A stretch of DNA of 62,176 bases, from positions 1 to 62,176 of the forward strand of contig JACNIU010000151.1 of NCBI GenBank assembly GCA_014382905.1, given 5' to 3'. This document shows positions 1,351 through 24,460 of this stretch, piece by piece. Every line of letters starts with the position of its first letter. Positions within the stretch are counted from its first letter, which is position 1. The translations under genes and the position numbers were made by a program. The notes under the pieces are model-generated. The model did not search any database and was not told the DNA's origin. It saw only the letters and a list, made by a program, of their open reading frames with translations. Origin of the DNA: Desulfobacterales bacterium (GTDB lineage: Bacteria > Desulfobacterota > DSM-4660 > Desulfatiglandales > Desulfatiglandaceae).

Positions 1351-1407
1351 TAAAGATCCGGGCCCGATGAATGATGTTTCCCGTAACTGAATCGAGGAAT
1401 CCAGTGT

Positions 1408-3375: not shown

Positions 3376-3399
3376 GTCTTTCATCTCGAGGATGTACGT

Positions 3400-7001: not shown

Positions 7002-7274
7002 TTTCTATCCCCCCATGGCACATAAAACCACGTGTGATCAACAATTTCCTTGACATCTAATTTAAAATCTAATTATTTTATTAATTAAATCTGTAACACT
7101 TGCCGATTAACCCAAATTGGGGATGATGTCAACCCCGATGTTGCAAAAACATCCGTAGGACGGTCCACATTTCCGTTGAATCATTAACCCCTGAACCTTT
7201 GAACCTTGAACCTCTAAACCCGGGAACGGTTACCGTTTCCCATACCCGCATAGACAAGAGCCAAGGGATGTATC

Positions 7275-8939: not shown

Positions 8940-8964
8940 GTTAAAATTAGAAGGAGGAGATTAT

Positions 8965-10407
8965 ATGGCTACTGTGGGAATAAGCGCATGCGGGGGTTAC
9001 ATACCTTACCTCAGGCTGGATCGAGGCGTCGTCGCCCAGATATGGGGAAGACATTCCATCGGCGGGGAAAGGAGTGTGGCCAATAATGACGAAGACAGTA
9101 TTACAATGGCTGTTGAGGCCTCAAGGAACTGCCTGGGAGGACAGGCTCCTGAACAGGTGGACGGGCTCCTTTTTGCCACGACCACTCCCCCCTACAAGGA
9201 AAAGATGAACGCCTCGCTGATTGCAGCCGCTGCGGACTTGAGAAGGGAGATCACTACGGCTGACTTTGCCCACTCACTGAGATCAGGGACCGCGGCCCTC
9301 AAGGCGGCCTTTGACTCGGTAAAGAGCGGTTCCATGGGAAATGCCCTCGTAGTGGCCTCGGATAGCCGCATCGGATATCCGAGATCAGACCAGGAGCAGG
9401 CCTTTGGCGACGGTGCCGGTGCCATTATGGTGAGTTCGGAGAACCTCTTGGCAACCTTGGAAGGGGGTTATTCCATCTGCAATGAGATGATGGACGTCTG
9501 GAGGAACCCGGAAGATACGTTTGTCCGGACCTGGGAAAGCCGTTTTATCTTAGGGGAAGGATATGCCAGCCATATGAAAGAGGCCGTTTCAGGGTTGCTG
9601 AAAAAATATGGTCTTGGGCCCAAAGAGATATCAAAGGCCATCCTGCCCGGCCCTGACATCCGGTCCCAGAAGACCCTGGCAAAACAGTTGGGCTTCGACA
9701 GCACGACACAGGTGCAGGACCCCCTGCTGTCGAACGTGGGGCATTGCGGTGCTGCCCATCCATTGCTGATGTTGGTGGACGCCCTTGAAGAAGCGAGTCC
9801 GGGCGACATGTTGCTCCTGGCCAATTATGCCGATGGCGCGGATGCAATGCTGTTCAAAGTGACAGACGAGATTGAAACAAAGAAAAACCAGCGCAGGGTG
9901 AAGGATTACATAAAGGAAAAAGCCCTTCTCCCCTCATATGCCCGGTTCCTGAGTTACAAGGGATTAGTTGAAACAGCCCCCGGAGAACCCTTTCGTCTGA
10001 TGCCTTCGGCAACAGTAAGCTGGAGGGACCGAAAGACCATCCTCAGATGCCACGGGAGCAGGTGCAACGCGTGCGGCAAGACCACCTTTCCGATTCAACG
10101 GGTCTGCTATCACTGCCATGCAAAAGACAACTTCGATGAAGTTCCCATCTCCCACCTAAAAGGGGAAGTATTCACGTTCACCTTGGACAACCTTGCCGGC
10201 AGGAGTGATGATCCTGTGGTGGTTCAGACCATAGCCGATCTCGGAGAAGACAAGATCCGGTTTTACGGCATGATGACAGACTGTGACCCATCTGAGGTCA
10301 GGTTGGGCATGCCGGTCAGTCTCACCTTCAGACGAATCTATGACGGCGCAGGTATGCATAACTATTTCTGGAAATTCAGGCCTGTGAGAAATGGGAGGAG
10401 TGAATAA
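8965..10407 (+). CDS. Archaeal-type HMG-CoA synthase-like domain fused to a C-terminal DUF35 (Zn-ribbon + OB-fold) domain
   Basis: ATG at 8965 follows AGGAGGAGATTAT. The N-terminus VGISACGGYIPYLRLDR...NNDEDSITMAVEA resembles archaeal HMGCS. The C-terminus CNACGKTTFPIQRVCYHCH...GEVFTFT is DUF35-like. See finding on missing catalytic residues. Confidence 0.75.
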   Translation: MATVGISACGGYIPYLRLDRGVVAQIWGRHSIGGERSVANNDEDSITMAVEASRNCLGGQAPEQVDGLLFATTTPPYKEKMNASLIAAAADLRREITTADFAHSLRSGTAALKAAFDSVKSGSMGNALVVASDSRIGYPRSDQEQAFGDGAGAIMVSSENLLATLEGGYSICNEMMDVWRNPEDTFVRTWESRFILGEGYASHMKEAVSGLLKKYGLGPKEISKAILPGPDIRSQKTLAKQLGFDSTTQVQDPLLSNVGHCGAAHPLLMLVDALEEASPGDMLLLANYADGADAMLFKVTDEIETKKNQRRVKDYIKEKALLPSYARFLSYKGLVETAPGEPFRLMPSATVSWRDRKTILRCHGSRCNACGKTTFPIQRVCYHCHAKDNFDEVPISHLKGEVFTFTLDNLAGRSDDPVVVQTIADLGEDKIRFYGMMTDCDPSEVRLGMPVSLTFRRIYDGAGMHNYFWKFRPVRNGRSE

Positions 10408-11594
10408 TGGGGAGCATAAAAGATCAAGTCGCCATCGTCGGAATGGGGTGCAGCAAATTTGGCGAGCGGTGGGAAAAGGGACCGGAAGACCTGGCCATCG
10501 AGGCGGCATACGAGGCTTTCGAAGACGCAGGGATCAGCAAAGACGATCTGGAGGGATGCTGGTTTTCTCAGGTCATGGCCCCTGTCATCGGGGTTTCAGG
10601 GACCGTTGCCGTCGACTCCCTGAAACTGGGAAATATCCCTGTCATTCGAAATGAGAACTGGTGTGCATCCGGCCACATCGCACTCCTTGAAGCGTGCATG
10701 GCGGTTGCCAGCGGGGCATATGACCTTGTGATGGCCCTCGGGGTGGAGAAACTGAAGGATACCGGGTTCCCGGGTCTGGGTACGGGAAGGGGGATGCATC
10801 CGGTGTACGAGGCCAGGAGGACCTCGCCGGGGTCGTTCGGGTTGATCGCCCAGCGGTATTTCAAGACCTACGGACTCACTGTGGAGGAAGGCCGGGAGGC
10901 ATTGGCCAAGATAGAGGTCAAGAACCATGATAACGGGAGCCTCTGCCCCAAGGCCCATTTTCACAACAAAATAACAGTGGAACAGGTCCTAAACGCACCG
11001 ATTATCGCCTGGCCCTTGGGCCTCTTTGACTGCTGCGGCAACAGCGACGGTGCCGCATGCGCCATTGTTACGACGGCTGAAAAGGCGAAGGATTTCCGGA
11101 AGGACCCGATTTTCCTGAAAGGGTTTGGGATCTCCACGGACGCCATGATACCGCACTTCAGGCCGGAGTTCGGCTGGACCAGCTTTGACGCCCTGGTAAC
11201 GTCTTCGCACAAGGCCTATGAAATGGCCGGGATCAAAGACCCCCGCAAGGAACTGGATCTGGCCGAGGTGCACGACTGCTTTTCCATCACAGAACTTCTG
11301 ATATACGAGGATTTCGGGTTCAGCCCCAGGGGAAAGGCCCGGGAGGATATTGATGCCGGGTTTTTCACCCGGGAAGGCGGTCTCCCGGTAAATATCGACG
11401 GGGGGCTGAAATGCTTCGGGCACCCGATCGGGGCGAGCGGGCTGAGAATGACCTACGAGGTGTACAAGCAGTTGCAGGGGAAGGCCGATCTGCCTGAACG
11501 GCAGATAAAAAACCCCAGGCTCGGGCTGGCACATACCTTTGGCGGGCCGCCGCAGATCAGCGCGGTCGCCATTTTCGGGAATGAGAAGGGATAG
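10407..11594 (+). CDS. SCP-x / nonspecific lipid-transfer-type thiolase
   Basis: Nucleophile segment NWCASGHIALLEA and C-terminal GGLKCFGHPIGASGL. The start overlaps the upstream stop (TAATG). Confidence 0.85.
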   Translation: MGSIKDQVAIVGMGCSKFGERWEKGPEDLAIEAAYEAFEDAGISKDDLEGCWFSQVMAPVIGVSGTVAVDSLKLGNIPVIRNENWCASGHIALLEACMAVASGAYDLVMALGVEKLKDTGFPGLGTGRGMHPVYEARRTSPGSFGLIAQRYFKTYGLTVEEGREALAKIEVKNHDNGSLCPKAHFHNKITVEQVLNAPIIAWPLGLFDCCGNSDGAACAIVTTAEKAKDFRKDPIFLKGFGISTDAMIPHFRPEFGWTSFDALVTSSHKAYEMAGIKDPRKELDLAEVHDCFSITELLIYEDFGFSPRGKAREDIDAGFFTREGGLPVNIDGGLKCFGHPIGASGLRMTYEVYKQLQGKADLPERQIKNPRLGLAHTFGGPPQISAVAIFGNEKG

Positions 11595-11625
11595 GAAGGG
11601 ATTGGCTCAAGAGAAACTCATATCC

Positions 11626-12564
11626 ATGTCCGAGGCCATCGACCGCTATGTGAGAGATGGAGACGTTGTATATCTGGGTGGCTTCATCCAGCAGGAGCCG
11701 TTTGCAGCGGTCCATGAGATCATCAGACAGGGGAAGAACGATCTCACAGTCTCAAAGTGTGCGGCCCTGATACTCGTGGATCAGATGATCGGGGCAGGGG
11801 TGATTCGTCATCTGATCACCACCTTCACGTGGAATCCTCTGCCGGCCCCGGCACACTGTTTCGTCCGCGCCCTGACCAGAGAGGTCCCCCACAGGATCGA
11901 AATCGAGGAATACTCCATCCTAACCCTGAACCTGGCCTATTTTGCAGGGGCTCTAAATCTCCCCTATGTGGCGACCAAGACCCTGTTGGGCTCCGGATTT
12001 GACAGGGAACAGAGCGATTCCGGGGTCAGGAGCAGGTTGAGATTTGAGACGTCTCCGTTTACCGGTGAACGGGTCTGTCTGGTCCCGCCGATAAAGCACG
12101 ACGTGGGGATCATGCAGGCCCAGAGATCAGACCCATATGGGAATACCCAGGCATGGGGGATGTTGGGGGAGGTTCGATACGCCCTGCAGAGCTGCGACAG
12201 GCTCATCATATGTGCCGAGGAGATCGTCGATACGGATGTTATCATGCGCGACCCCAACCGCACTCTTGTGCCGGCGTTTCGCGTGAGTGCCGTAGTGGAG
12301 GAACCATGGGGAAGCCACCCCGCGCCCATGGCCGGATATTATGACATGGACTGGCCCTACAATGCCTATTACGAGAAAGAAACCCGTACAGAGGATCTGT
12401 TTCAAGGGTTTATGAACAAATGGGTTTATGACACGAAAGACCGAAAGGATTATCTGAATCTGGTCGGGGAAGACCGGTTGAAGGCCCTTGGCCCGGAGCG
12501 GTTTGCGTCAGACCCCGTTTCCTACGGCAAACTCACCCGTCATATCAGGACGCCATATGTCTGA
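11626..12564 (+). CDS. CoA-transferase subunit A (glutaconate CoA-transferase family)
   Basis: MSEAIDRYVRDGDVVYLGGF... is typical of GctA-like subunits. The start is uncertain: ATG 11581, TTG 11602 and ATG 11626 are all in frame. Confidence 0.8.
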   Translation: MSEAIDRYVRDGDVVYLGGFIQQEPFAAVHEIIRQGKNDLTVSKCAALILVDQMIGAGVIRHLITTFTWNPLPAPAHCFVRALTREVPHRIEIEEYSILTLNLAYFAGALNLPYVATKTLLGSGFDREQSDSGVRSRLRFETSPFTGERVCLVPPIKHDVGIMQAQRSDPYGNTQAWGMLGEVRYALQSCDRLIICAEEIVDTDVIMRDPNRTLVPAFRVSAVVEEPWGSHPAPMAGYYDMDWPYNAYYEKETRTEDLFQGFMNKWVYDTKDRKDYLNLVGEDRLKALGPERFASDPVSYGKLTRHIRTPYV

Positions 12565-13372
12565 TACAAATGAAAAGGTCACGCCCATCGAGCAGATGAT
12601 CGTATCTGCCGCAAGATTGATAAAGGACGAGAGTGTCCTGATGGTCGGCACCCAGTGGCCCATCATTGTATCCCTGCTGGCCAAATCCCTCCATGCCCCC
12701 GGCATCACCATCTGTTATGAGGGTGGCGTTATCCTGCACAAGGTCCCCGAGCGTATCCCGCTTTTCACGGCGGACCCGGTAGTCAACTCGAGTTCAGTAC
12801 TATTGGGCAGTTCCTTTGACACATTGGGCGCCGTCCTTCACGGCGGAAGGGCCGACATGGCGCTGTTGTCGGCCGCCTCGGTGGATCGTTACGGAAACAT
12901 CAATACGACCTGTATCGGAGATTACACATGCCCCAGGGTCCGTTTCGGGGGGAGCGGCGGGGCATGTGATTTCGGGAGCCTTGCACCCAAGACCGTCATT
13001 ATCCTTGAACATGACCGGCAGCGGTTTCCCGAGCAGGTTGATTTTATCACGACCCCCGGTTACCTGAAGGGAAAGGGGGATCGCATTCGGGCAGGTCTCA
13101 GACCGGACACCGGTCCCTATGCAGTGGTCACAACGTTGGGGCTTTTTCAATTTGATGAAGAAGGCGAGATGGTACTCAGGGCCCATAACCCCGCTGTATC
13201 CATTCGGGAGGTAAAGGAGGGTGTTCAATGGGACCTGAAGATCCATAAGGACGTGCGCCCCCTTGATCCCCCAAGTGAAAAGGAATTGCGCGTGTTGCGG
13301 GAGCAGCTTGATCCGGAGGGGATGTATTTGAGGGATGCGAGACGACTTAATGAAAAGGAAGGCGTCATCTAA
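12557..13372 (+). CDS. CoA-transferase subunit B
   Basis: ATG at 12557 overlaps the subunit A stop (ATGTCTGA). The sequence MSDTNEKVTPIEQMIVSAARLI... is GctB-like. Confidence 0.8.
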   Translation: MSDTNEKVTPIEQMIVSAARLIKDESVLMVGTQWPIIVSLLAKSLHAPGITICYEGGVILHKVPERIPLFTADPVVNSSSVLLGSSFDTLGAVLHGGRADMALLSAASVDRYGNINTTCIGDYTCPRVRFGGSGGACDFGSLAPKTVIILEHDRQRFPEQVDFITTPGYLKGKGDRIRAGLRPDTGPYAVVTTLGLFQFDEEGEMVLRAHNPAVSIREVKEGVQWDLKIHKDVRPLDPPSEKELRVLREQLDPEGMYLRDARRLNEKEGVI

Positions 13373-13460
13373 AGGGCAGGCCATGATGGTAATGATAATG
13401 GCGTGATGGCGTAGTGCAGTACTAAAGTGGTGGAATGTTGCAATTGGATGCGGAGGGCTC

Positions 13461-14246
13461 ATGGACTTTAAAGATATTATCTACAGGAAGGAAGATGGGA
13501 TAGCCCATATCATCATTAACAGACCGGAGAAGCGAAATGCCCTTAACCGGGCCGCCAGGCTGGAGATGATGGAGGCCTTGGGGGATGCGGAAAACGATAT
13601 GGCCGTAAAGGTGCTGATCCTTTCAGGCGCCGGGGAAAAGAGTTTTATGGCAGGGTCTGACCTCAACGAGCTTTCAAAATTTTCCCCCTTAGAGATGGAG
13701 AGATTCACCTCAACGTTGGGGGGCAGGTTTTATACGAGATTCGAGCAGTCCGACAAACCCGTCATTGCCATGATAGACGGTCTCTGTCTCGGCGGCGGGC
13801 TCGAACTGGCCCTGGCCTGTGATATCCGGATCGCGTCGAACGCGTCCAAATTCGGGCAACCTGAGATGTTCCTGGGCATCATGCCCGGGAGCGGTGGGAC
13901 ACAACGGCTCCCCAGGCTTGTGGGACCGGGGAAGGCCAAGGAACTCATCCTTACGGGGAAGACCATCGACGCAACAGAGGCGCTCCGGATAGGGCTGGTG
14001 AATCAGGTGGTTTCACGAGATGGATTAGAGGAGACCGTAATGACCGTTGCAAAGCAGATCGCCAAACAGAGCCCCCTCGCACTGAAATGGGCCAAGAAGG
14101 CCATCAACATGTCCCAGGAAACCGGTCTGGGGGCCGGGATCGCCTATGAGACCTTGGCCGATTGCCTTCTTTTTTCCGGGAAGGATCGTGAAGAAGGGAT
14201 GAAGGCATTCTTTGAGAAACGAAAACCCCAATTTAAAGGAGAATAA
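13461..14246 (+). CDS. Enoyl-CoA hydratase/isomerase (crotonase family)
   Basis: [26 protein letters not shown]; FMAGSDL. Confidence 0.9.
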   Translation: MDFKDIIYRKEDGIAHIIINRPEKRNALNRAARLEMMEALGDAENDMAVKVLILSGAGEKSFMAGSDLNELSKFSPLEMERFTSTLGGRFYTRFEQSDKPVIAMIDGLCLGGGLELALACDIRIASNASKFGQPEMFLGIMPGSGGTQRLPRLVGPGKAKELILTGKTIDATEALRIGLVNQVVSRDGLEETVMTVAKQIAKQSPLALKWAKKAINMSQETGLGAGIAYETLADCLLFSGKDREEGMKAFFEKRKPQFKGE

Positions 14247-14256
14247 GGATAAAGAT

Positions 14257-15402
14257 ATGATCGATTTTGAGCTTTCAGAGGAAAACCGTATCTTTCGCAG
14301 TGCTATTCGGGACTTCGCACAGAAGGAAATCGCGCCGCTGGTGGATGAGGCAGAAGAAACACACACATTCCCCAGACAACTGTTCCGGAAGATGGGGGAA
14401 CAGGGATTTCTCTGCCCGAGATATCCGGTGGAATTGGGTGGGGGCGGCGGCGACAAGATAACGGAATGCATCATGGTGGAGGAGATCAACAGGGTCAATG
14501 CGGGGATTGCGGCCGCACTGATGGCACAGAGCGGTCTCGCCACCCAGCCCATCTACCGGTTCGGGTCCGATGAACAAAAACAGAAATTCCTGATCCCGGC
14601 CATCAAGGGGGAAAAGATCGGGGCCTTTGGACTGACCGAGCCGAATGTGGGGTCGGACGCGGCCGCCATCCAGTCAAAGGCCGTCCGTGCCGGGGACAAC
14701 TACCTGATCAATGGGACCAAGATGTTCATCACCAACGGCCCGATCTGTGACTATGTGATCGTGGCCGCATACACTGACCCAACCCAAAGGGGGGTTGGTA
14801 TCAATCTCTTTATTGTTGAAAAAGGCACACCCGGGTTTACGGTCTCCCGGAAACTGGACAAGGTGGGGAACTGGTCCGCCGAAACCGGCGAACTGGTATT
14901 TGACGACTGCGCGGTTCCGGCCAAGAACATGATTGGAGAAAAAGAAGGGGGCGGGTTTGATCAACTGGCCGATACCCTTGTCTCAGGCCGGATAACCTAT
15001 GGCGCACGATGTACAGGCACTGCCCAGGCCGCGTATGACCTGACCGCGCAATATGCCAAGGAGCGGGTCCAGTTCGGGAAACCGATCGTAAAATTCCAGA
15101 ACACCCGGTTCAAACTTGCGGAAATGGCCACCTACATTGATATCATGCGGAGCTACACCTATCGGGTGGCCCGGATGTATGATACGGGAAAGAACGTCCG
15201 TAAGGAGGCTGCCATGGTCAAGCTCTTTACCGCGGAAATCGTTCAGAAAATCCTGGCCTATTCCATGCAGATTCACGGGGGGTACGGATACATGATGGAA
15301 TATCCGATCCAGAGATTCTGGCGGGATGGAAGGTTATACACTGTCACCGAAGGAACATCCGAGATTCAACGGCTGATTATCGCAAAGGAGCTGGGGCTCT
15401 GA
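14257..15402 (+). CDS. Acyl-CoA dehydrogenase
   Basis: ATG 14257 follows AAAGGAGAATAAGG. Motifs GLTEPNVGSDAAAI and MQIHGGYGYMMEY. Confidence 0.9.
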   Translation: MIDFELSEENRIFRSAIRDFAQKEIAPLVDEAEETHTFPRQLFRKMGEQGFLCPRYPVELGGGGGDKITECIMVEEINRVNAGIAAALMAQSGLATQPIYRFGSDEQKQKFLIPAIKGEKIGAFGLTEPNVGSDAAAIQSKAVRAGDNYLINGTKMFITNGPICDYVIVAAYTDPTQRGVGINLFIVEKGTPGFTVSRKLDKVGNWSAETGELVFDDCAVPAKNMIGEKEGGGFDQLADTLVSGRITYGARCTGTAQAAYDLTAQYAKERVQFGKPIVKFQNTRFKLAEMATYIDIMRSYTYRVARMYDTGKNVRKEAAMVKLFTAEIVQKILAYSMQIHGGYGYMMEYPIQRFWRDGRLYTVTEGTSEIQRLIIAKELGL

Positions 15403-15441
15403 GAGATGTGAGAGGTGTGAGAGTCGTCAGGGGGGGTTACC

Positions 15442-16548
15442 ATGGAAAAATGGAGGTTTGTGGAAGTGGACTGGTTGAGCTATGCGGAAACGGCAATCTA
15501 CAGACCGGTCCTTATGCGCGCCGTGAGCGAAGGGGCGGTCCAGGAGACGGTCTCCTTTTGCAGGTTTCCGGTACCCAGCCTGGTCCTCAATTTCTTTAAC
15601 GACCCACAAAAGGAAATCAATCTGGGGCTTTGTAAGAGAAAAAACATCCCGGTGTATCGAATCATCTCCAGCGGGGGCCCGATCTTTGGAGATACCGGGT
15701 ACATCTTTACCTTCCTGCACCTGAAGAGAACCAATCCAAAGGTTCCCCCGGACGTCCCCAAGATGTTTGAAAAGACACTTACCGGGATTGCACAAGGGAT
15801 TTCGGATTACTTTGGAATCGAGAGCCGGTTCAGACCGCTCAACGATATCGAAGTCCGATGCGATGATGGCGCCTGGAGAAAAATTGGCCCCTCTTCCTGT
15901 TTTTATGAAGAAAAGGCAATCCAGATGGGTTCCGGAATTCAGGTGAAGGCTCCTGATGTCGATCTCATTGCCGAGGTCATCTCCGCGCCACCCGAGAAGT
16001 TTGTGGACAAGGAGGCAAAAAGCATCCAGGAGAGGATAACATATCTTGAAAAGGTCGTGGGGAGAGAGATTGATCTCAGGGAGATTAGAGATATCTATGT
16101 GGCTCAGATCGAGAAGGTATTCCAGGTAAGATTGGATCCCGGAGAACTCACAGATAAAGAAAGAGGATATTACGGTGAAATGGAGAGGGAGTATACCAAT
16201 GAGGATTTTTTCATGGAGCGGGCCGAAGAGACGTTGGGTGTTATCCCTCAGGACGTTACCCGGAAAATGATTCAGTTCAAGGTCCCGGAAGGCCCTTTTA
16301 TGAGGATCATTGTCTTGACAAAAGACAATCGAATCAAGGATATGATTATCTCCGGCACGATTCACGCCTCTCCTTTAAGGCCCACCACGCCGATTCACGA
16401 GATTGAAGCGGCACTGAGAGGTCAACCGATTGACAAAGATCTTTTTGAGTCCAGGATTGGCAAAGTGCTGACCCGCCAGGGCTTTCATATCGCCAAGGTT
16501 TCCGCGGAGTTCTTGGCAAAAAAAATCTATGATTGCGCACTCTCCTGA
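15442..16548 (+). CDS. Lipoate-protein ligase A (LplA/BPL-LPL) family protein, paralogue 1
   Basis: Two-domain LplA-like layout. RPLNDIEVRCDDGAWRKIGPSS corresponds to the LplA adenylate-binding lysine segment. The C-terminal IISGTIHASP resembles the LplA accessory domain. Confidence 0.7.
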   Translation: MEKWRFVEVDWLSYAETAIYRPVLMRAVSEGAVQETVSFCRFPVPSLVLNFFNDPQKEINLGLCKRKNIPVYRIISSGGPIFGDTGYIFTFLHLKRTNPKVPPDVPKMFEKTLTGIAQGISDYFGIESRFRPLNDIEVRCDDGAWRKIGPSSCFYEEKAIQMGSGIQVKAPDVDLIAEVISAPPEKFVDKEAKSIQERITYLEKVVGREIDLREIRDIYVAQIEKVFQVRLDPGELTDKERGYYGEMEREYTNEDFFMERAEETLGVIPQDVTRKMIQFKVPEGPFMRIIVLTKDNRIKDMIISGTIHASPLRPTTPIHEIEAALRGQPIDKDLFESRIGKVLTRQGFHIAKVSAEFLAKKIYDCALS

Positions 16549-16634
16549 CTCAAAAAGAGAAACGATCGGGGTACTCACCTATTTGACGAGGTCTGTATCT
16601 GTATAATGAGTTCCAGGCATAGTGAGGTGTTGAA

Positions 16635-17843
16635 ATGATAAAAGAAGTCATAGAACCGCTGAGGGCGCAGCTTGAAAGGCTTAACCAGATAGCCTTTTAT
16701 AAGCAGAAGATCGAAAATGCAGGGATTCACCCGTCGGACACAAAGGCCTTGGATGATTTCCAAAATATTCCTTTCACAACCACCTCCGAGCTAATGAAAG
16801 AGCTGAGGAAAAAGCCCTCGGAATCTTCTCTCTTTTCTGATGACGTGACCCGCATCAATTTTTCTCCATCAGGACACGACCTGTATCCGGTATACCACAC
16901 CCATAATGATCTCCAAAAGATGCACCAGGTCTGCGGCCGTTCCTTAGAGGCCGCGGGTGTCCAGAAAGGGGATATCTGTGCGGTAACGTTCGGATACCAT
17001 CTCTTTATTGCCGGGCTCTTCTACCAGGGACAACTGGAATACTACGGGGCCAAGGTCATCCCTGTGGGTCCGGGTGAATCCGAGAGGGCCGTCCAACTCA
17101 TCAACGACTACCAGGTATCCGTCCTGATTTCAAATCCTACCTTCGCGATGAAATTGACCCAAAAAGGAATCCCCAGTGTGAGGATTCTGTTTGTGGGGGG
17201 AGAACCGTTTACATCAGTGGAGGGGTATCCGGAAAAGGTCCGGGAGGCCTTTGGAAGAGAGATCACCATAATAGATTCCTACAGCATGGCCTTATGCATG
17301 CCGATTGCCCGCAGTTGCACACATGGAACAGGGCTTCATGTCATGGACGATTTTGTTTATGCCGAAGTCATCGATCCTGAAACAGGCAACGCTGTCCCTT
17401 ATGGGGAGAAGGGTGAACTGGTCTTGACCCACCTGCACAAGGAGGCCGCCCCTTTACTGCGATACCGTACCGGGGACCTGACCCTTTTGGAGAAAAAGAG
17501 ATGTGAGTGCGGAAGAGAGTTGACGTTGCCGAAGAGCGTTTTTGGCCGTACCGACGAAATGCTCAAGATAAAGGGTGTCAAATTCTGGCCGTCGCAAATC
17601 AGTGGGATTCTTCGGGCATTTCCCGGACTCACGAGCAGATATCAGGTGGTCGTCAGAACAAAGGGCGGAGTAGATTTTCTCCGGTTGACGGTGGAAGGGG
17701 ATGATACATCAAGCCCGGGTATCGATGAACTGTCAAAACGGCTGAAGCAGGAGACCCTCCTGGCCTTTAACGAGATACGCGTCGCAAACAAATTAGAGGA
17801 AGGGCCGGCAGTGGTCGATGAACGCAAGGGGAGGCGTTTTTAA
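16635..17843 (+). CDS. PaaK-like (phenylacetate-CoA ligase / coenzyme F390 synthetase family) adenylate-forming enzyme, divergent
   Basis: LRYRTGDLT and GRTDEMLKIKGVKFWPSQI are typical of the PaaK family. The N-terminus has the PaaK-type NIPFTTTSEL. The phosphate-loop segment is atypical (see finding). Confidence 0.75.
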   Translation: MIKEVIEPLRAQLERLNQIAFYKQKIENAGIHPSDTKALDDFQNIPFTTTSELMKELRKKPSESSLFSDDVTRINFSPSGHDLYPVYHTHNDLQKMHQVCGRSLEAAGVQKGDICAVTFGYHLFIAGLFYQGQLEYYGAKVIPVGPGESERAVQLINDYQVSVLISNPTFAMKLTQKGIPSVRILFVGGEPFTSVEGYPEKVREAFGREITIIDSYSMALCMPIARSCTHGTGLHVMDDFVYAEVIDPETGNAVPYGEKGELVLTHLHKEAAPLLRYRTGDLTLLEKKRCECGRELTLPKSVFGRTDEMLKIKGVKFWPSQISGILRAFPGLTSRYQVVVRTKGGVDFLRLTVEGDDTSSPGIDELSKRLKQETLLAFNEIRVANKLEEGPAVVDERKGRRF

Positions 17844-17863
17844 TAACATGAGGTAAAAAGCGG

Positions 17864-18964
17864 ATGGAACAGCTCAGGCTCATAAGAACGGGATATAATT
17901 ATGCGGATTTCTCAACGAGTATCTCACCCGCCATTGAACTTGCCTTAGAGAAGAGGCAGGCGGCAAGTGCCGTTGTCCTGAATGTCTTTCGTGGCGGCAG
18001 TTTCACTTCAGGGTTTCTCGATGATCCGGAGAAGGCCCTTGACCTGGAGTACTGCAGACAAGAAGGGATTGTGGTCAGGCGGCGACAAAACGCGGGCGGG
18101 GCTATCTGGGGTCCGGATGGTGGGGCACTGATAGTCCTGTATGTGGATACCCGGCTGCCGTGGGTGCCGATGAAAACAATAAAGGACGCATTCGGCATAA
18201 CACTGAACCGGTTGGCGGAAGCAGTCCGTGAGCTGTTTGAGGTGGAGGCGGTTTACAGACCACTCAACGATGTGGAGGTGGAAGGGCGAAAGCTGATCCC
18301 CACTTCAGCAAGGCTCGAGAAAGAGATCCTGACCATGCGTCTGCTGGTCAATGTCGTTCCCACTGATCCGAACATTTTGAAAAAGGCCATCATCACACCT
18401 CCTGAAAAGACCCAGGACAAGAAAATTAAAGACCCGGGCGCCCGGTTTACGTGTCTGGAAATAGAGGCAGGGAGGAAGATCTCCCATTCAGAACTCTTGA
18501 CACTTACCAGCAAGACCGTAGAAAAGATCTTCGGGACCACCGTCCAGCTTGTGCCCGGGGAGTTGAGTGATCTGGAGAAGACCTATGCCGCCGAATACCA
18601 GAAGGAGTATACATCAGAGGCGTGGTTTTATGCCAACTCCGAGCGGATGCGATTTAAGGAAATTCCTCCCGATGCGGCCAAGTGCGAGGGGAGGCACAAG
18701 GCGCCTGCAGGGTTGATTCGTGTGACACTGCTCATCACAAAAAACAGGATCCACGATCTCATTATTACTGGGGATTTCCATCCGGCGCCATACCAGGTCC
18801 TGAGAGAGATGGAAAATGTGGTGAGGGGGAAAGAATGCAACTTGGACATAGTGGAAAATGAGATCCAACAGATCTTTGATCGATCCGATGTGGAGATTGC
18901 AGGCACGGAAGTAAAGGATTTTGTTGGGGCCTTTTCTATGGCCTTTCGAGACATCGAAAAATAA
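17864..18964 (+). CDS. Lipoate-protein ligase A (LplA/BPL-LPL) family protein, paralogue 2
   Basis: VVRRRQNAGGAIW matches the LplA RRxxGGGAV motif. NDVEVEGRKLIPTSARL is the lysine segment. The C-terminal IITGDFHPAP resembles the LplA C-terminal domain. Confidence 0.8.
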   Translation: MEQLRLIRTGYNYADFSTSISPAIELALEKRQAASAVVLNVFRGGSFTSGFLDDPEKALDLEYCRQEGIVVRRRQNAGGAIWGPDGGALIVLYVDTRLPWVPMKTIKDAFGITLNRLAEAVRELFEVEAVYRPLNDVEVEGRKLIPTSARLEKEILTMRLLVNVVPTDPNILKKAIITPPEKTQDKKIKDPGARFTCLEIEAGRKISHSELLTLTSKTVEKIFGTTVQLVPGELSDLEKTYAAEYQKEYTSEAWFYANSERMRFKEIPPDAAKCEGRHKAPAGLIRVTLLITKNRIHDLIITGDFHPAPYQVLREMENVVRGKECNLDIVENEIQQIFDRSDVEIAGTEVKDFVGAFSMAFRDIEK

Positions 18965-19068
18965 ACGTCAGAGGAAGGAGGTGATGTCGGAAACCCGAAT
19001 CTTGGCTAAAGACCTCTCAATACGTTTGAACTAACCCAACCCTTAGAGAATAAAGGAGGCGAAGAATC

Positions 19069-20226
19069 ATGTCACATTTCAGGTTTGGAAAGAATGGCGT
19101 CATTTTTATGGTTTGCGTTTCACTTATCTTTTTCGGCTTCCTTGCTTCGGCCGGTGCGGAAGAATCGGTTTCATTGCCCAAGACAATGATATGGAGTTGT
19201 TACGATGTGGGGGCCTCCGGCTATGTGCAGGCATCCGCCATTGCAGATGCCTTTGTCAAGAAATATGGGATCCGGATCCGATTGCTGCCGTCCGGGACAT
19301 CAATAGGGAGGCTGATGCCGCTGACCACCAAAAGAGTCATTTGCGGCTTTCTGGCAAATGAGGTCTTTTTTGCTGTTGAGGGACTTTATGATTTCTCCAC
19401 CATCGAATGGGGGCCGCAGGATCTCAGGGTCCTCCTGGCACACCCCACAACCATCGCCTTAGCAACCACGAAGGAATCCGGTATAAAGGCGATAAAGGAT
19501 CTGAAAGGCAAACGGGTTTCATGGATCCCGGGTGCCCCCACGTTAAACATAAAGGCTGAGGCCTTTCTCGCCTTTGGCGGTATGACGTGGAACGATGTCA
19601 ATAGGGTTGAATTCCCCAGTTACGGTGCGGCATGCAAGGCCCTGATAGAGGGCAAGACCGATGCATCCGTTGTATCCACCTCTGCATCGATCATGTATGA
19701 GTTGGAAACCTCACCAAGAGGCCTGTTCTGGGTCCAATTCCCTCCGTCTGACAAGGAAGGCTGGGACAGGATGTTGAAGATAGCACCCTTTCTCAGCCCC
19801 AAAAAAGAGACAGTCGGCGCAGGCATATCCAAGGAGAATCCCGTTTACCTGCCAGGATACCGCTATCCCATGATCACGGTCTATGCGAATGCTGACCCGG
19901 AATGGGTCTATAACTTCGTAAAGGCCCTGGATCAGACGTATCCCATGTATGAGAAGGCCCATGCGGTAATGCCTGATTGGAAGATATCTGAGTCAGGCGT
20001 TCCGCCCGCAGACGCTCCTTTCCACGTGGGCGCCATAAAATATCTAAAGGAAAAAGGGGTTTGGACGGCCAAAGATGACGAATGGAACAAGGCGCGTCTC
20101 GGGCAACTGAAGAAGGTGCAGGGGGCATGGGAAAAGACGGTCGCAGAAGCAGAGGCAAAGAAGATCAAATCGAAGGAGTTCCCGGAATTCTGGATGAAAC
20201 AGAGGGCGGCGGCCTTGAACCAGTAA
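19069..20226 (+). CDS. TAXI-family TRAP transporter solute-binding protein (second copy)
   Basis: RBS AAAGGAGG; signal peptide ...VCVSLIFFGFLASAGAEE. Paralogous to 238..1296, with a shared C-terminus (FHxGAIxYxKExGVWT). Confidence 0.85.
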   Translation: MSHFRFGKNGVIFMVCVSLIFFGFLASAGAEESVSLPKTMIWSCYDVGASGYVQASAIADAFVKKYGIRIRLLPSGTSIGRLMPLTTKRVICGFLANEVFFAVEGLYDFSTIEWGPQDLRVLLAHPTTIALATTKESGIKAIKDLKGKRVSWIPGAPTLNIKAEAFLAFGGMTWNDVNRVEFPSYGAACKALIEGKTDASVVSTSASIMYELETSPRGLFWVQFPPSDKEGWDRMLKIAPFLSPKKETVGAGISKENPVYLPGYRYPMITVYANADPEWVYNFVKALDQTYPMYEKAHAVMPDWKISESGVPPADAPFHVGAIKYLKEKGVWTAKDDEWNKARLGQLKKVQGAWEKTVAEAEAKKIKSKEFPEFWMKQRAAALNQ

Positions 20227-20280
20227 ACATCTGACGATGTGACACCGCCTTTATTAGTGAGATCTGAGTGAGGGTTTCCT

Positions 20281-22227
20281 GTGGCAGACACGGAAGAGCA
20301 TCGCAGTAAAGGAACAAAAAAAAACGGGGCGAGATTAAGCGGCACATCCTATGTTGTAACGGCCGTAATGTCTTCCCTTGGGATCCTTCTGTGTATCAAC
20401 CAGATCTTTCACCTGAATATCGGCGGGTTCATGCCGATCGGGAATGCCTACTACTACTACATCCTCACCTTTTATCTCTCTATCAGTTTTCTCGTGTTTC
20501 CAGGCGCCAAGAAAGATAGTAACCGAGTCCCCTGGTATGACTGGGGATTGTTTATCCTTTGTATTGTGACCACCCTCTATTTGGGCCTGAACGCCTACAA
20601 CATCCTGACAAAGGGCTGGGAATATGTGGCCCCGGCCCTGCCCACATTGGCCGGAGGAATACTCTGGCTCCTCGCCCTCGAAGGGATACGACGCACAGGG
20701 GGCTTCAGCCTATTTGTCATATGCCTTGTCTTTTCCCTTTATCCCCTTTACGCCGGGTACATGCCCGGGTTCCTCTGGGGGAGTTCGTTTTCCCTGCTGG
20801 AGACCGTCCGATATCAGTCCATGGGGGTTGAAGGGATTATTGGAATTCCCACACGAGTGGTTGGCAACCTCCTGGTCGGTTTTATTATATTTGGCGTGGC
20901 CCTGGTCTCTTCCGGGGGTGGGAAATTCTTTATGGATTTCGCCCTTTCGTTGCTGGGGCATACAAGGGGCGGGGCTGCAAAGGTCGCGGTATTCTCAAGC
21001 GCCTTCATGGCAAGCCTGAGCGGCAGCGTCATCTCCAACGTTGTCACCACCGGGTCCATGACCATCCCCGCCATGAAGGCGACCGGGTACAGCCCCAGAT
21101 GGGCAGGCGCGGTGGAGGCCTGTGCCTCCACCGGCGGATCCATCATGCCGCCCATCATGGGCGCAGCAGGTTTTCTGATCGCCTCTTTTCTGAATGTCCC
21201 ATACGTGGAGGTCATGCGGGCGGCCTTTTTCCCGGCGTTTCTCTACTACTTGACCCTTATCCTTCAGGTGGACGCGCATGCAGCCTTCACAGGGATCGGA
21301 GGTCTTCCGAGAGATGAACTCCCCGATAAATGGGCCACCCTAAGAAAGGGGTGGTTCTTTCTCGGGTCTCTTTTTCTTCTGATCTTTATCCTTATCTACA
21401 TGCGGACAGAGTCTTGGGCGCCCTTCTACGTGATGATATTTCTCTTTGGGTGCTCTATGATCAGAAAAGAAACCCGTTACACATGGAGGAAATTTGTCGA
21501 TTTTATTGTCAACTCAGGCCGTCTTCTGGGGCAGATAACAGGAATCCTTGCTGGAATTGGTCTGATCATGGGCTCTCTTTCCGGAACGGGAGTGGCCAAC
21601 TCTTTTTCGAGAGAGCTGGTGCTGTTTGCCGGCGGCAACACCGCCCTTCTCCTTATCTTCGGCGCCATCACCAGCTTTGTCCTGGGAATAGGAATGACCG
21701 TTACCGCCTGTTACGTCTTCCTGGCGATCGTTCTCGTCCCTGCTCTGGTCGAGGTGGGACTCAACCAGATGGGATGCCACCTCTTTGTACTCTACTGGGG
21801 GTGCCTGTCCTACATAACCCCCCCCGTGGCATTAGGGGCTATCACTGCCGCCGCCATAGCCAACTCCAACCCCATGTCAACAGCGTTCCTGTCCATGCGG
21901 CTGGGGTCGGCAAAGTACATCCTCCCCTTTCTTTTTGTCCTGAATCCCGCTATGATTCTACTGGGGCCATGGGAAGTGGTGTTGCTGGCGGTTGTCACGG
22001 CGATTATCGGTTGTATTCTACTTGCATCCGCCCTTGAGGGTTACCTTTACTTCTTCGGCAGGCTGTCCTTTTTTCCAAGGACCGTCATTTTTGCATCCGG
22101 ATTCCTATTTCTTTATCCCGATTGGCTGGCCGACATTTCGGGGTTGGGGGTTCTGATCTTGTTCATACTCTTGCTAAAGGCAGGTGTCATTAAACAGCCG
22201 GTATCAACAGAAGCAACCATGGCCTGA
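20281..22227 (+). CDS. TRAP transporter fused permease (second copy)
   Basis: 648-aa polytopic ORF with a GTG start per the track. Paralogous to 1408..3375. Confidence 0.85.
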   Translation: MADTEEHRSKGTKKNGARLSGTSYVVTAVMSSLGILLCINQIFHLNIGGFMPIGNAYYYYILTFYLSISFLVFPGAKKDSNRVPWYDWGLFILCIVTTLYLGLNAYNILTKGWEYVAPALPTLAGGILWLLALEGIRRTGGFSLFVICLVFSLYPLYAGYMPGFLWGSSFSLLETVRYQSMGVEGIIGIPTRVVGNLLVGFIIFGVALVSSGGGKFFMDFALSLLGHTRGGAAKVAVFSSAFMASLSGSVISNVVTTGSMTIPAMKATGYSPRWAGAVEACASTGGSIMPPIMGAAGFLIASFLNVPYVEVMRAAFFPAFLYYLTLILQVDAHAAFTGIGGLPRDELPDKWATLRKGWFFLGSLFLLIFILIYMRTESWAPFYVMIFLFGCSMIRKETRYTWRKFVDFIVNSGRLLGQITGILAGIGLIMGSLSGTGVANSFSRELVLFAGGNTALLLIFGAITSFVLGIGMTVTACYVFLAIVLVPALVEVGLNQMGCHLFVLYWGCLSYITPPVALGAITAAAIANSNPMSTAFLSMRLGSAKYILPFLFVLNPAMILLGPWEVVLLAVVTAIIGCILLASALEGYLYFFGRLSFFPRTVIFASGFLFLYPDWLADISGLGVLILFILLLKAGVIKQPVSTEATMA

Positions 22228-22290
22228 AGATAGTTTGAACTGGGCCTGTTATTCAAAAAACGATTTTCTAAACCCTGAGGACAGACGCCG

Positions 22291-22371
22291 ATGACGGCCT
22301 TTATCATCCGTCGATTTTTGATCCTCATCCCCACTTTTCTCAGCATCACCTTAGGGCGCAGTCAAATCTGA
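22291..22371 (+). pseudogene. Remnant of an ABC peptide/nickel-type permease (OppB/DppB-like) N-terminus, truncated after about 21 residues
   Basis: ATG at 22291 encodes MTAFIIRRFLILIPTFLSITLGRSQI*. The first 21 aa match the characteristic OppB/DppB N-terminal helix. Confidence 0.45.
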
Positions 22372-22417
22372 CACAAATCTGGGCGCCAATTCTGGGAATA
22401 TATTTTTGTGCGAGCCC

Positions 22418-22918
22418 TTAGGCCCGATCATAGTACTTCAGCGATTCCCAGAAATCCTTGTCCTGGTCTTTCCAGTCCAGCCCGAATTTCCTGTCGTAAA
22501 AATCACTGAATCGCTCCATCCATCGCCACCAGAAGCTCTGGCCCTGCTCCTTCGCTTCCAGCAGATCATTTAAATATGTGACAATGTTTGCCATCTCCTC
22601 CTTTGGCACAAAGGATGCCGCCCCATCCTTAAAAGACTTAAGGGTATCCTCAGGGCTCAGAGCGTGGGCGGTCAGCATCACCGCAATGACCTTTCGATCG
22701 ATGGCAATCTCAAGGAGCTTATACCCGTCAACCCCCATGATATCCAGCACGGCCATATCGAAATACTGAGAGGTCAACAGATCTCTGGCTTCAATGAAAT
22801 TAGAGGCCTTAACAACATCACATACAGATAACAAGTCCTCCAAGGTTGCCAAGACATCCGGTTCATCATCAACAATGAGGATTCTCTTTCCATCTAACAG
22901 ACTTTTGTTCATGATCAT
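22418..22918 (-). CDS. Stand-alone response-regulator receiver domain protein with a short C-terminal extension
   Basis: RILIVDDEPDV ... FDMAVLDIMGVDG ... VIAVMLTAH are CheY-like REC motifs. Confidence 0.85.
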   Translation of the reverse strand: MIMNKSLLDGKRILIVDDEPDVLATLEDLLSVCDVVKASNFIEARDLLTSQYFDMAVLDIMGVDGYKLLEIAIDRKVIAVMLTAHALSPEDTLKSFKDGAASFVPKEEMANIVTYLNDLLEAKEQGQSFWWRWMERFSDFYDRKFGLDWKDQDKDFWESLKYYDRA

Positions 22919-22930
22919 ATCTCCTTACAA

Positions 22931-24460
22931 TCATCTCAATATCTTCCGGTCCAGGGTCCGGTATTGAATGGCCTCTGCAACATGGGACGCCTCTATGTTG
23001 GGACTACTCTCCAGGTCAGCAATGGTCCGGGCGATCTTCAATATACGCGCGTGTGCCCTTGCGCTGAGACCGAATCTCTCCATGGCCTTTTCCATAAGTG
23101 AACTGGATTCCGAATCGATTTCACAAAACTGTTTGATATGGCGGCTGTTCATCCGGGCATTGATAAAGATCTTCGTCCGGACCAGCCTCTCTCCCTGGAT
23201 CTTCCTTGCATTCATCACCCGCTCCAGGATCTCCGCTGACGAGGCCCCGTCGGAGACACCTGAAAGGTCTTTATAGGGCACAGCAGGGACCTCCATGTGG
23301 ATATCGATCCGGTCCAGCAAAGGGCCGGATATCTTGGACCGATACCGCTGAACCTGCAATGTTGAACAGGTGCATTCCTTTTTGAGATCGCCCAAAAAAC
23401 CGCACGGGCAGGGGTTCATGGCAGCCACCAACATGAACTCAGCCGGATAGGCAACCGTGGAACTGGCTCGGGAAATGGTTACCTGTCCATCCTCCATCGG
23501 CTGCCGCAGGACCTCCAAGACATTCCTTCTGAACTCAGGAAGCTCATCTAAAAAGAGGACCCCGTTGTGTGCAAGACTCACCTCACCCGGTTTCGGGTTC
23601 TGCCCTCCCCCGATCAGACCGGCGTCTGAAATTGTGTGGTGCGGTGAACGAAACGGACGGATCGTGATCAGCCCGTGATCTTTTGGCATCAGCCCCATAA
23701 CACTGTAGATCTTGGATGTTTCGAGAGACTCGTCAAAACTGAGAACGGGGAGAATCGTAGGCAGGCGTTTTGCCAACATGGTCTTGCCCGAACCGGGCGG
23801 GCCGATCATAATAAGATTATGCCCACCGGCCGCCGATATCTCCACGGCCCTTTTTGCGTTCTCCTGGCCGCGGACATCGATGAAATCCATCCAGGAGACC
23901 TGCGGCTGAAAGAGCTTGTTGATTTCCACCGTAAAAGGACTTATCTTGGCTATGCCTCTCAGCGCCCCAACAACCTGGGATAAGGCATTCACGGGGAAGA
24001 TAGGAACCCCTCCCACGACTGCCGCTTCAGAACCGTTTTCAACCGGCAGGAAGATACCCCTGAGGCCGAGTTTCTTTGCGGCGATGGCCATTGGCAAAAC
24101 GCCCCTGACAGGCCTTATGAGGCCGTCCAGGGCCAGTTCGCCTAAGAAAAGGTGGTCTGAGTAGGATGACCTGTTGATGAGCCCTGTGGCCGCCAGAATA
24201 CCGAGGGCCATGGGGAGGTCAAATGCGGACCCTTCTTTCTTGATGTCTGCAGGCGCCAGGTTGACCGTGATCCGGTCGGAAGGAAAATGATACCCGGAGT
24301 TCTTGATAGCCGCCTTGACCCTTTCTTTGCTTTCACGGACCGCCCCTTCTGGCAAGCCCACTGTGGAAAAAGAGGGGAGACCCTGCGAGATATCCACCTC
24401 TACCTCTACCACATAGGCATCGATTCCAATGACGGCGCTACTGAGGACTTTGGCTAACAT
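22931..24460 (-). CDS. YifB/ComM-family Mg-chelatase-like AAA+ ATPase
   Basis: Start at ATG 24460 (MLAKVLSSAVIGIDAYVVEVE) follows AGGAGACC. Walker A GPPGSGKTMLAKRL and Walker B VLFLDELPEF. Confidence 0.9.
   Translation of the reverse strand: MLAKVLSSAVIGIDAYVVEVEVDISQGLPSFSTVGLPEGAVRESKERVKAAIKNSGYHFPSDRITVNLAPADIKKEGSAFDLPMALGILAATGLINRSSYSDHLFLGELALDGLIRPVRGVLPMAIAAKKLGLRGIFLPVENGSEAAVVGGVPIFPVNALSQVVGALRGIAKISPFTVEINKLFQPQVSWMDFIDVRGQENAKRAVEISAAGGHNLIMIGPPGSGKTMLAKRLPTILPVLSFDESLETSKIYSVMGLMPKDHGLITIRPFRSPHHTISDAGLIGGGQNPKPGEVSLAHNGVLFLDELPEFRRNVLEVLRQPMEDGQVTISRASSTVAYPAEFMLVAAMNPCPCGFLGDLKKECTCSTLQVQRYRSKISGPLLDRIDIHMEVPAVPYKDLSGVSDGASSAEILERVMNARKIQGERLVRTKIFINARMNSRHIKQFCEIDSESSSLMEKAMERFGLSARAHARILKIARTIADLESSPNIEASHVAEAIQYRTLDRKILR

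Follow-up and report, generated by a model that had tools for sequence, protein, structure and literature searches.

Lipoate-protein ligases of the LplA family, such as LplA of Escherichia coli, LplA-LplB of Thermoplasma and Lpl of Mycoplasma, and compact ANL-fold ligases, such as phenylacetate-CoA ligase (PaaK1 and PaaK2 of Burkholderia cenocepacia, PaaK of E. coli, BT_0428) and 2-hydroxyisobutyryl-CoA ligase (HCL), are the described proteins to which the products of a three-gene unit on contig JACNIU010000151.1 of a Desulfobacterales bacterium (assembly GCA_014382905.1) can be compared. In this unit, here called the trio, a PaaK-like gene is flanked by two LplA-like genes, encoding Lpl1 and Lpl2. 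The whole stretch that was analysed, 62,176 nucleotides long (positions 1 to 62,176 of the contig), is referred to as the window, and related loci are given L numbers. The finding is a conserved, previously undescribed pairing of known folds and a variant of carboxylate activation; no description of an Lpl/PaaK pairing, of PaaK proteins without a P-loop or of LplA paralogues in acyl-CoA operons was found in a full-text search of the literature. The reading that fits the data best, put forward here tentatively, is that the three products make up one carboxylate-activating enzyme of several subunits, a "split" acyl-CoA synthetase, whose substrate acid is brought in by the adjacent TAXI-TRAP transporter.

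One of the nearest functional precedents for such a unit is the bipartite LplA-LplB of archaea. In mammals, the lipoate-activating enzyme is ACSM1, an ANL enzyme, and the physiological relevance of its relay with LIPT1 is disputed. Vertebrate LIPT1 is a "half-ligase" that transfers lipoyl-AMP which it cannot make itself (PMC7253636). The lipoate-activating enzyme and LIPT1 together resemble the proposed system in that adenylate formation and acyl transfer are split between an ANL-fold and an LplA-fold protein (PMC7253636). The polarity would be reversed here, as the LplA-fold proteins keep the adenylation features and the ANL-fold protein appears to be the half-enzyme, and the proposed final acceptor is CoA and not a protein lysine. 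Diverged LplA paralogues that are devoted to one gene cluster, and not to housekeeping lipoylation, are also found in sulfur oxidizers as sLpl(AB) (PMC6067878). The sLpl(AB) clusters always encode the lipoate-binding acceptor LbpA (PMC6067878), whereas no acceptor domain was found in the 117 sequences (the window and 116 related loci) searched here.

The trio lies at positions 15442-18964 of the window, and its three genes are:

15442-16548, + strand: Lpl1, a two-domain LplA-like protein of 368 aa (Pfam LplA-B_cat, E 1e-16)
16635-17843, + strand: PaaK-like ANL-fold protein of 402 aa (AMP-binding and AMP-binding_C_2; the best NCBIfam matches are PaaK models)
17864-18964, + strand: Lpl2 (subtype 2a), a two-domain LplA-like protein of 366 aa (LplA-B_cat, E 1.6e-12)

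The open reading frames (ORFs) match exactly the position, single strand, tight spacing and paralogue lengths given in the initial annotation of this DNA. The intergenic gaps are 86 bp and 20 bp, and a GAGG-type or G-rich ribosome-binding site precedes each gene. All three proteins fall far below every curated equivalog cutoff.

For the PaaK-like protein, the equivalog scores are 214.7 bits on TIGR02155 (cutoff 646) and 248.5 bits on NF041878 (cutoff 700). Its AlphaFold2 (AF2) model, with a predicted local distance difference test (pLDDT) score of 82.7, has the ANL/PaaK fold with the N-terminal microdomain and the mobile C-terminal domain, and is matched by BT_0428, PaaK1 and HCL with template modelling (TM) scores of 0.74-0.82 in Foldseek. 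The identity to described PaaK and HCL proteins is ~29-33%. The protein is unlike them in being ~30-40 aa shorter, in its distinctive C-terminus LE(E/D)GPxVxDER, in its 'LKIKGVK' hairpin and in lying outside a paa cluster; no paaABCDE, paaG or paaZ was seen in the window.

The main difference from the canonical ligases is found in the motifs of the adenylation half-reaction. In an alignment with E. coli PaaK, Haloarcula PaaK and a canonical PaaK-family gene from a related locus, the A3 P-loop, canonically SSGTTGKP, reads SPSGHDLYP in the window protein, SPSG(H/Q)(D/E)L(Y/F)P in relatives and TPAKDxxLP in haloarchaea. The A5 motif YGLSE is replaced by YSMAL with a deletion of two residues, and the GK of A10 by GP, which lies inside the conserved C-terminal LE(E/D)GPxVxDER. 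The same changes are seen in HMMER alignments to 4r1l and 2y27. The A7 motif (YRTGD), the A8 hinge (GRTDEMLKIKGVK) and the C-terminal domain are kept. These replacements are conserved across the clade: neither a canonical P-loop nor a canonical A5 is present in any of 114 full-length homologues, and a canonical P-loop is absent from all 82 locus-derived sequences. YRTGD is present in 113 of the 114 homologues and GRTDEM(L/H)K(I/V)KG(V/I)K, corresponding to A8, in 107.

The A3, A5 and A10 motifs are needed for ATP binding and adenylation, and a review of aryl-CoA ligases reports that activity falls by as much as three orders of magnitude, or disappears, when the P-loop is substituted (PMC8388817). 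Having lost the P-loop of A3, the Glu of A5 and the Lys of A10, the PaaK-like protein is probably unable to adenylate. Set beside these losses, the retained A7, A8 and C-terminal domain suggest that it has kept the means to hold the adenylate ribose and to swing its C-terminal domain, but not the means to make the adenylate. The description of the middle gene as a PaaK-family adenylating enzyme is thus borne out for the family and unjustified for the word "adenylating", and the trio cannot be read as three adenylate-forming enzymes in a row. The clade also has specific invariant lysines, K311 and K316, in the A8 hairpin ('LKIKGVK'), where canonical PaaKs have I/V and N. In a thioester-only enzyme, these lysines could bind phosphate or CoA; equally, they could be sites of acylation. 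None of the solved structures comes from the P-loop-less PaaK clade; ClxA (9s3l) was considered as a member because of its similar length, but it keeps the TTG and the A5 Glu.

The two LplA-like proteins show a different pattern of retention and loss. Lpl1 and Lpl2 share 31% identity and score 61.4 and 54.2 bits, respectively, on the lipoyltransferase equivalog TIGR00545 (cutoff 280). Both have C-terminal domains in addition to the LplA-B_cat match, in agreement with their earlier description as diverged two-domain paralogues of the LplA family, and Lpl2 also matches the LplB/Lip_prot_lig_C C-terminal domain models, the Lip_prot_lig_C match being weak. The AF2 model of Lpl1 (pLDDT 92.9) superposes with both domains on full-length E. 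coli LplA (TM 0.73-0.80, 14-20% identity), and the best Foldseek match is the apo form of this enzyme; for the LplA family as compared here, TM scores range from 0.73 to 0.83. A PDB search with a profile from the Lpl1 alignment matched lipoate-protein ligases only. The comparison with LplA, LipM and BirA suggested in the initial annotation thus places Lpl1 closest to LplA, with LipM-like, BirA and LipB (2qhs, 1w66) structures ranking far lower and LipB covering the N-domain only. An octanoyltransferase of the LipB/LipM type, which has a single catalytic domain, was set aside in view of the C-terminal domain and the low rank of the LipB structures.

The residues associated with adenylate formation are conserved in both proteins. 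Among 26 Lpl1 orthologues (52-85% identity), R73, G78, G79, D84, N134, D135, K147, K186, D189, K190 and R198 are invariant, and R73, G78, G79, N135, D136, K143, K182, D185, K186 and R194, in Lpl2 numbering, are invariant across Lpl1 and Lpl2. The lysine segments noted earlier as RKIGPSS and GRKLIPTSA are present as WRKIGPSS and GRKLIPTSA; their lysines (WRK147IGPSS in Lpl1, GRK143LIPTS in Lpl2) align with the KKI of Thermoplasma LplA, at the catalytic lysine of solved LplAs, which is K133 in E. coli LplA. A misalignment of the active-site lysines, considered at the outset, is therefore not observed. When E. coli LplA is aligned with Lpl1, the Lpl2 subtypes, two haloarchaeal homologues and a distant GC-rich clade, the Asp of the ND motif and the Arg and Gly of the loop do not vary. 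The K/K/R of the adenylate-binding loop EKxxDKxxKxxxxRxT are invariant in all Lpl clades and in E. coli LplA.

The lipoate-binding loop is altered. It reads RRSSGGGAVFHD in LplA and RIISSGGPIFGD in Lpl1 (R-I-I-S-S-G-G-P-I-F-G-D), and RRxxGGGAV(F/Y)HD is found in neither Lpl1 nor Lpl2. The RRxxGGGA motif ascribed to the second paralogue in the initial annotation reads RRRQNAGGAIWG, an approximate match and not an exact one. The position of E. coli W37 is R or variable in Lpl1 and V in Lpl2, those of F147 and H149 are M and S in Lpl1 and M and L in Lpl2, and that of H79 is G in the Lpl proteins; these four residues line the lipoate pocket of E. coli LplA. Since the catalytic residues are kept and the lipoate loop and pocket residues are changed, Lpl1 and Lpl2 appear to be adenylate-forming enzymes that are catalytically competent but whose pocket is not shaped for lipoate. 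Both also keep the C-terminal accessory domain, which in lipoate ligases is needed for adenylate synthesis (PMC7253636).

Lpl1 has ~117 orthologues in Thermodesulfobacteriota metagenomes, and Lpl2 has >200 homologues, one of them in the cultured Desulfoferula mesophila. A combined Lpl1 and Lpl2 profile retrieves 252 clusters (50% identity) at E <= 1e-30, many with deviant lipoate loops, and a gradation into more canonical LplA-like proteins is observed. The more canonical LplA-type proteins (RRxTGGGA..D, GRKISGTGG) form a separate group among the family representatives. Some canonical-motif LplA-like proteins of 520-540 aa (P0410, P0413, P0422, P0431, P0436, P0471, P0496 and P0500) have a C-terminal Cys-rich domain (LLPYCAK…C..C..G.AY…CCE.F), and P0396 (1117 aa) has two LplA modules followed by a C-terminal Cys-rich domain of the same type. 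It may be these Cys-rich-extended proteins that act as the true lipoate ligases in these anaerobes; we know of no description of LplA-like proteins with such a domain.

The gene linkage of the LplA-like and PaaK-like genes is that of a conserved unit and not a chance neighbourhood. Seeding with Lpl1, at one genome per species, gave 23 loci, all in metagenome-assembled genomes (MAGs) of Thermodesulfobacteriota type except for one, a partial match binned as a Bathyarchaeia archaeon. The PaaK-like gene lies 3' of Lpl1 in 14 of these loci, and in two more it is present but broken by assembly problems; Lpl2 is found only in the close relatives. Seeding with the PaaK-like clade in metagenomes gave 80 loci, which were taken as informative when at least 1.5 kb was available on both flanks. 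In all 20 informative loci of bacterial type, the P-loop-less PaaK gene lies at most 1.3 kb from an Lpl gene, and the distance is usually below 300 bp. When PaaK homologues were picked for having no Lpl match on their contig, an adjacent Lpl gene was present in all three cases. Both gene orders occur, Lpl1 followed by PaaK and PaaK followed by Lpl2, and the stop and start codons of the pair overlap in L022, L024 and L033.

The pair is also found at a large evolutionary distance. In contigs with 60-70% GC, a clade at 41-44% identity has the PaaK-like gene directly followed by an Lpl2-like gene, and this pair adjoins a TRAP permease or a FadB-like gene. On haloarchaeal plasmids, PaaK-like homologues with 38-41% identity and the same motif losses are present in acyl-CoA clusters with an LplA-like gene, which is annotated as lipoate-protein ligase family in Haloterrigena turkmenica and is an unannotated 386-aa homologue in Natronosalvus. 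Two hypersaline metagenome contigs, L107 (527-4917) and L110 (2912-7177), each have a complete trio in the order Lpl–PaaK–Lpl, with all genes on the same strand, the Natronosalvus-type Lpl upstream and the Haloterrigena-type downstream, mirroring the window architecture at very low identity. In addition, the groups in a neighbour-joining tree of 82 PaaK-like sequences follow the type of partner. As a conserved unit, it is the PaaK-like/LplA-like pair that is widespread; the exact trio is restricted to relatives at ~76% identity or more (L007, L039, L040, L043) and the analogous haloarchaeal trio, and a version with an inserted acyl-CoA dehydrogenase (ACAD) and Lpl2b is present in L009-L011 and L089.

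Genes of acyl-CoA catabolism and of transport accompany the pair. An ACAD gene is followed by an Lpl gene in L007-L011, L019, L020, L025, L029 and L031. TAXI and DctM genes come directly after the pair in L009-L014, L017, L034 and L101, and before it in L029 and L031. The Desulfarculaceae, including the cultured D. mesophila, have ACAD–Lpl2b–NifU_N-like, divergent from IclR–TAXI–DctM–PaaK-like–ECH–Lpl2a–cupin-like (ECH, enoyl-CoA hydratase). Locus L034 is a compact operon of Lpl1, PaaK-like, TAXI, DctM, PaaY-like, ACAD, ACAD and 3-hydroxyacyl-CoA dehydrogenase genes, and in compact operons of this kind the pair is the only candidate activating enzyme.

Several further features of these loci were recorded. 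In L004 (11159-13012), Lpl1 is followed by a 617-aa chimera of which the first ~83 residues are a P-loop-less PaaK-like N-terminus (…VRINFTPSE…) and the rest is a complete canonical FadD-type ligase with the P-loop TGGTTGLPKG and the A10 GK intact; it looks like a PaaK-like gene replaced by an ordinary ligase. MmgE/PrpD-family genes adjoin Lpl1 in three loci (L004 2782-9931, L020 11088-12452, L024 1573-3012), and just upstream in L004 a SIR2 sirtuin gene and two Hist_deacetyl-family genes are present. Two small proteins, neither of them encoded in the window, accompany the Lpl2b subtype (L009 9315-9725 and 14819-15253; L029 11171-11566 and 11632-12030). One is a cupin-like protein of 131-136 aa with no Pfam or NCBIfam match and 74% identity between a Thermodesulfobacteriota MAG and Desulfoferula, and the other, which is NifU_N/IscU-like and has three Cys, is always encoded directly after ACAD–Lpl2b. 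In L015 (1266-2486), the PaaK-like gene continues in frame into a hydrophobic C-terminus like that of a TRAP permease, which is probably a chimera of the MAG assembly, and in L016 (1201-1843) a masked run of N interrupts the gene.

A search for a lipoyl acceptor was made with phmmer, using E. coli GcvH, AceF (full length and first lipoyl domain), LipA and LipB as queries against six-frame ORFs of the window and the 116 related loci (1.21 Mb). No lipoyl protein, lipoyl synthase or octanoyltransferase was found in these 117 sequences, which upholds the reported absence of GcvH, lipoyl domains, LipA and LipB from the window and extends it to the related loci. The single LipA match, in L111, is a BioB-like radical-SAM/BATS protein and not LipA. 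Pfam scans of the window ORFs of at least 150 aa, covering nearly all of them, gave no lipoyl or biotinyl domain, in line with the earlier remark that a biotinyl carrier is missing. No acceptor candidate for protein acylation emerged in the window or the related loci.

Of the two possibilities offered at the outset, an acyl-AMP relay feeding the CoA pathway fits the data best, and it can be sharpened to the split acyl-CoA synthetase. In this mechanism, Lpl1 and/or Lpl2 would bind the acid and ATP and form the acyl-adenylate, and the PaaK-like subunit, which keeps the A7 ribose-binding Asp, the A8 hinge and hairpin and the mobile C-terminal domain, would supply the CoA site and carry out thioester formation. 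The adjacent TAXI-TRAP is the probable importer of the acid to be activated, and the acyl-CoA product would enter the co-encoded ACAD, ECH, thiolase and mutase pathway. The two Lpl paralogues around one PaaK-like protein may represent two acid specificities that share a thioesterification partner, or a hetero-oligomer. This proposal is favoured because the half-reaction motifs are complementary, the PaaK-like protein having lost the adenylation set that the Lpl proteins keep, and because the subunit-like gene linkage spans Bacteria and Archaea. It is also favoured by compact operons that, like L034, offer no candidate activating enzyme other than the pair, by the sorting of the PaaK-like tree by partner type, and by the other TAXI-TRAP of the window, which together with a canonical ligase (3400-4956) has a parallel "transporter plus activating enzyme" layout. 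The same observations allow a broader and somewhat more speculative view, namely that the pair might be a new class of heteromeric carboxylate-CoA ligase in which a subunit like class II aminoacyl-tRNA synthetases (the LplA fold) adenylates, an adenylation-less ANL subunit thioesterifies, and interchangeable Lpl paralogues set the specificity.

Several points weigh against a split acyl-CoA synthetase. Complex formation, acyl-AMP transfer and the role of CoA as the acceptor are inferred, and the motif argument is likewise drawn from sequence, with an unconventional ATP site in the PaaK-like protein being possible. To our knowledge, LplA normally buries its acyl-AMP, and a hand-off to the active site of another protein is without precedent in that direction. 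No Lpl–PaaK fusion is present among the 150 best family representatives; the long matches in that search are canonical-motif LplA proteins with the C-terminal Cys-rich extension and one double LplA of 1117 aa. About one third of the Lpl1-seeded loci (six or seven of the 23: L001, L003, L008, L020, L023, L025) have no adjacent PaaK-like gene. In the haloarchaeal-like clade, five informative loci and two with one short flank have a P-loop-less PaaK gene without an Lpl gene (<=8 kb on each side), and in L111, which has no Lpl gene, a canonical ACS-like ligase lies directly upstream of the P-loop-less PaaK gene. Several loci with the pair, the window included, also carry ordinary AMP-binding ligases or CoA-transferases, so that formation of the CoA ester does not always depend on the pair alone. 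Loci of these kinds, with Lpl1 lacking a PaaK-like neighbour or P-loop-less PaaK adjoining an ordinary ACS-like ligase without an Lpl gene, speak for an unlikely alternative, in which the proteins are separate enzymes. The PaaK-like protein would then be a self-sufficient ligase with a non-canonical nucleotide site, or would run an ATP-independent reaction on acyl-CoA or acyl-AMP (e.g., in the reverse, ATP-yielding direction). The Lpl proteins would perform another step; they might form an amide at the expense of ATP, for example, or activate a second carboxyl group. The PaaK family has diversified to ester and amide formation, with NatL2, AjiA1 and ClxA as structural neighbours, and the PrpD/MmgE-family genes beside Lpl1 (L004, L020, L024) hint at di- or tricarboxylate chemistry. 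The joint, clade-wide loss of A3, A5 and A10 makes autonomous adenylation unlikely (PMC8388817), and near-obligate adjacency, overlapping stop and start codons and two gene orders are more typical of subunits than of pathway enzymes.

The other possibility raised initially, transfer of an acid to a protein, would take the form of dedicated protein acylation and appears rather improbable. The Lpl proteins would adenylate the pathway acid, or lipoate or octanoate, and attach it to a lysine of a cluster-encoded protein, which could be the PaaK-like protein itself (K311, K313 and K316 of the A8 hairpin 'LKIKGVK') or an ACAD, where the acyl group would be a prosthetic swinging arm or have a regulatory role. 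Such a function would agree with the native activity of the LplA family, which acylates lysines, and with the complete two-domain ligase architecture of both Lpl proteins; the gain of invariant lysines in the PaaK-like clade, the frequent ACAD-then-Lpl adjacency and the sirtuin and two HDAC-like deacylases beside Lpl1 in L004 are also in line with it. However, no lipoyl, biotinyl or carrier-type domain is found across the 1.21 Mb of related loci, the gained lysines are equally explained by phosphate or CoA binding, the sirtuin association is seen in one locus only, and the decay of specifically the adenylation motifs in the PaaK-like partner is left unexplained. It is very improbable that the Lpl proteins ligate lipoate or octanoate in the ordinary way to lipoyl proteins encoded elsewhere in the genome, with the acyl-CoA neighbourhood being incidental or related to lipoate scavenging. 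Family membership, the two-domain fold, the conserved catalytic Lys and adenylate-binding loop, and public annotations as lipoate-protein ligase A agree with such a role. Against it stand the scores of 54-61 bits where the lipoyltransferase equivalog requires 280, the changed lipoate-binding loop and pocket residues, the absence of GcvH, E2, LipA and LipB from the 117 sequences, and the two or three paralogues per locus. The consistent link to one degenerate PaaK clade in Bacteria and Archaea also argues against ordinary ligases, as does the existence of more canonical LplA-type proteins as a separate group of the family.

If the split acyl-CoA synthetase is real, it would be the first LplA-fold enzyme that feeds small-molecule CoA metabolism and not protein lipoylation, and the first family of ANL enzymes to be permanently limited to thioesterification. 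In anaerobic degraders and haloarchaea, hundreds of genes whose present annotation is lipoate-protein ligase A or phenylacetate-CoA ligase would have to be renamed, and a new class of organic-acid catabolic operons (TAXI-TRAP with ACAD/ECH and mutase) would be marked. For the engineering of carboxylate activation, it would also provide a natural system of two parts, given that LplA already serves widely as a protein-labelling scaffold. The broader heteromeric ligase, if true, would be present in sulfate-reducing and syntrophic Thermodesulfobacteriota, a high-GC lineage and haloarchaea, and would represent an acyl-adenylate hand-off between two unrelated adenylate-forming superfamilies. Whatever the mechanism, the clade-wide loss of three adenylation motifs together with the near-obligate linkage to an LplA paralogue is a testable regularity.

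In the window, the trio is part of a + strand run (7275-22227) that extends on both sides of it, and the ECH, ACAD and TAXI-TRAP genes next to it belong to the same apparent operon. As described initially, an ACAD gene (14212-15402) lies upstream of the trio and a TAXI-TRAP pair (19069-22227) downstream. The neighbouring features are:

220-4956: other TAXI-TRAP pair with a canonical acyl-CoA ligase (TAXI binding protein 220-1296, ligase 3400-4956)
7275-13372, + strand: large subunit of a methylmalonyl-CoA mutase (MCM)-like mutase, HMG-CoA synthase (HMGCS)-like/DUF35 fusion, SCP-x-type thiolase and CoA-transferase A/B (upstream part, same apparent operon)
13461-14246, + strand: ECH (Pfam ECH_1; just upstream of the trio, same apparent operon)
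14212-15402, + strand: ACAD (Pfam ACAD; directly 5' of Lpl1, same apparent operon)
19069-20226, + strand: TAXI solute-binding protein (TIGR02122 TRAP_TAXI, 180 bits, cutoff 84; downstream of the trio)
20281-22227, + strand: fused DctQM-type TRAP permease (DctM, E 2.5e-90)

The operon boundaries rest on spacing, because no promoter or terminator signals above the shuffled background were found in 7000-23000. None of the ACAD, ECH, mutase, ligase or CoA-transferase genes of the cluster reaches an NCBIfam equivalog cutoff; the thiolase, with the generic acetyl-CoA acetyltransferase model, is the sole gene to pass one among those checked, and the substrate acid of the cluster is not named by these models. 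The upstream block from the mutase to the CoA-transferase region is syntenic in L007, L009-L011 and L020.

In this upstream block (7275-11594), the gene for the MCM-like mutase large subunit overlaps the HMGCS-like/DUF35 gene by 83 bp. The DUF35 part of the fusion is a ChsH2 zinc-ribbon and OB module, the SCP-x-type thiolase comes next, and the stretch from mutase to thiolase resembles the archaeal thiolase/HMGCS/DUF35 complex. Further downstream (43199-46155), a gene resembling 3-hydroxyisobutyrate dehydrogenase precedes an ACS-like gene of 651 aa, whose reported domains are ACAS_N and AMP-binding, without AMP-binding_C; similar dehydrogenase genes flank the Lpl1/PaaK pair in L022 and L024. 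The window also contains a defence island on the - strand (33879-42608) with a type I restriction-modification system, consisting of HsdR (33879-37049), HsdS (38660-39910) and HsdM (39907-41466). A DUF3800 gene (37659-38387) is inserted in the restriction-modification genes, and a gene with HNH and SduA_C (Shedu-like) domains is located at 41670-42608.

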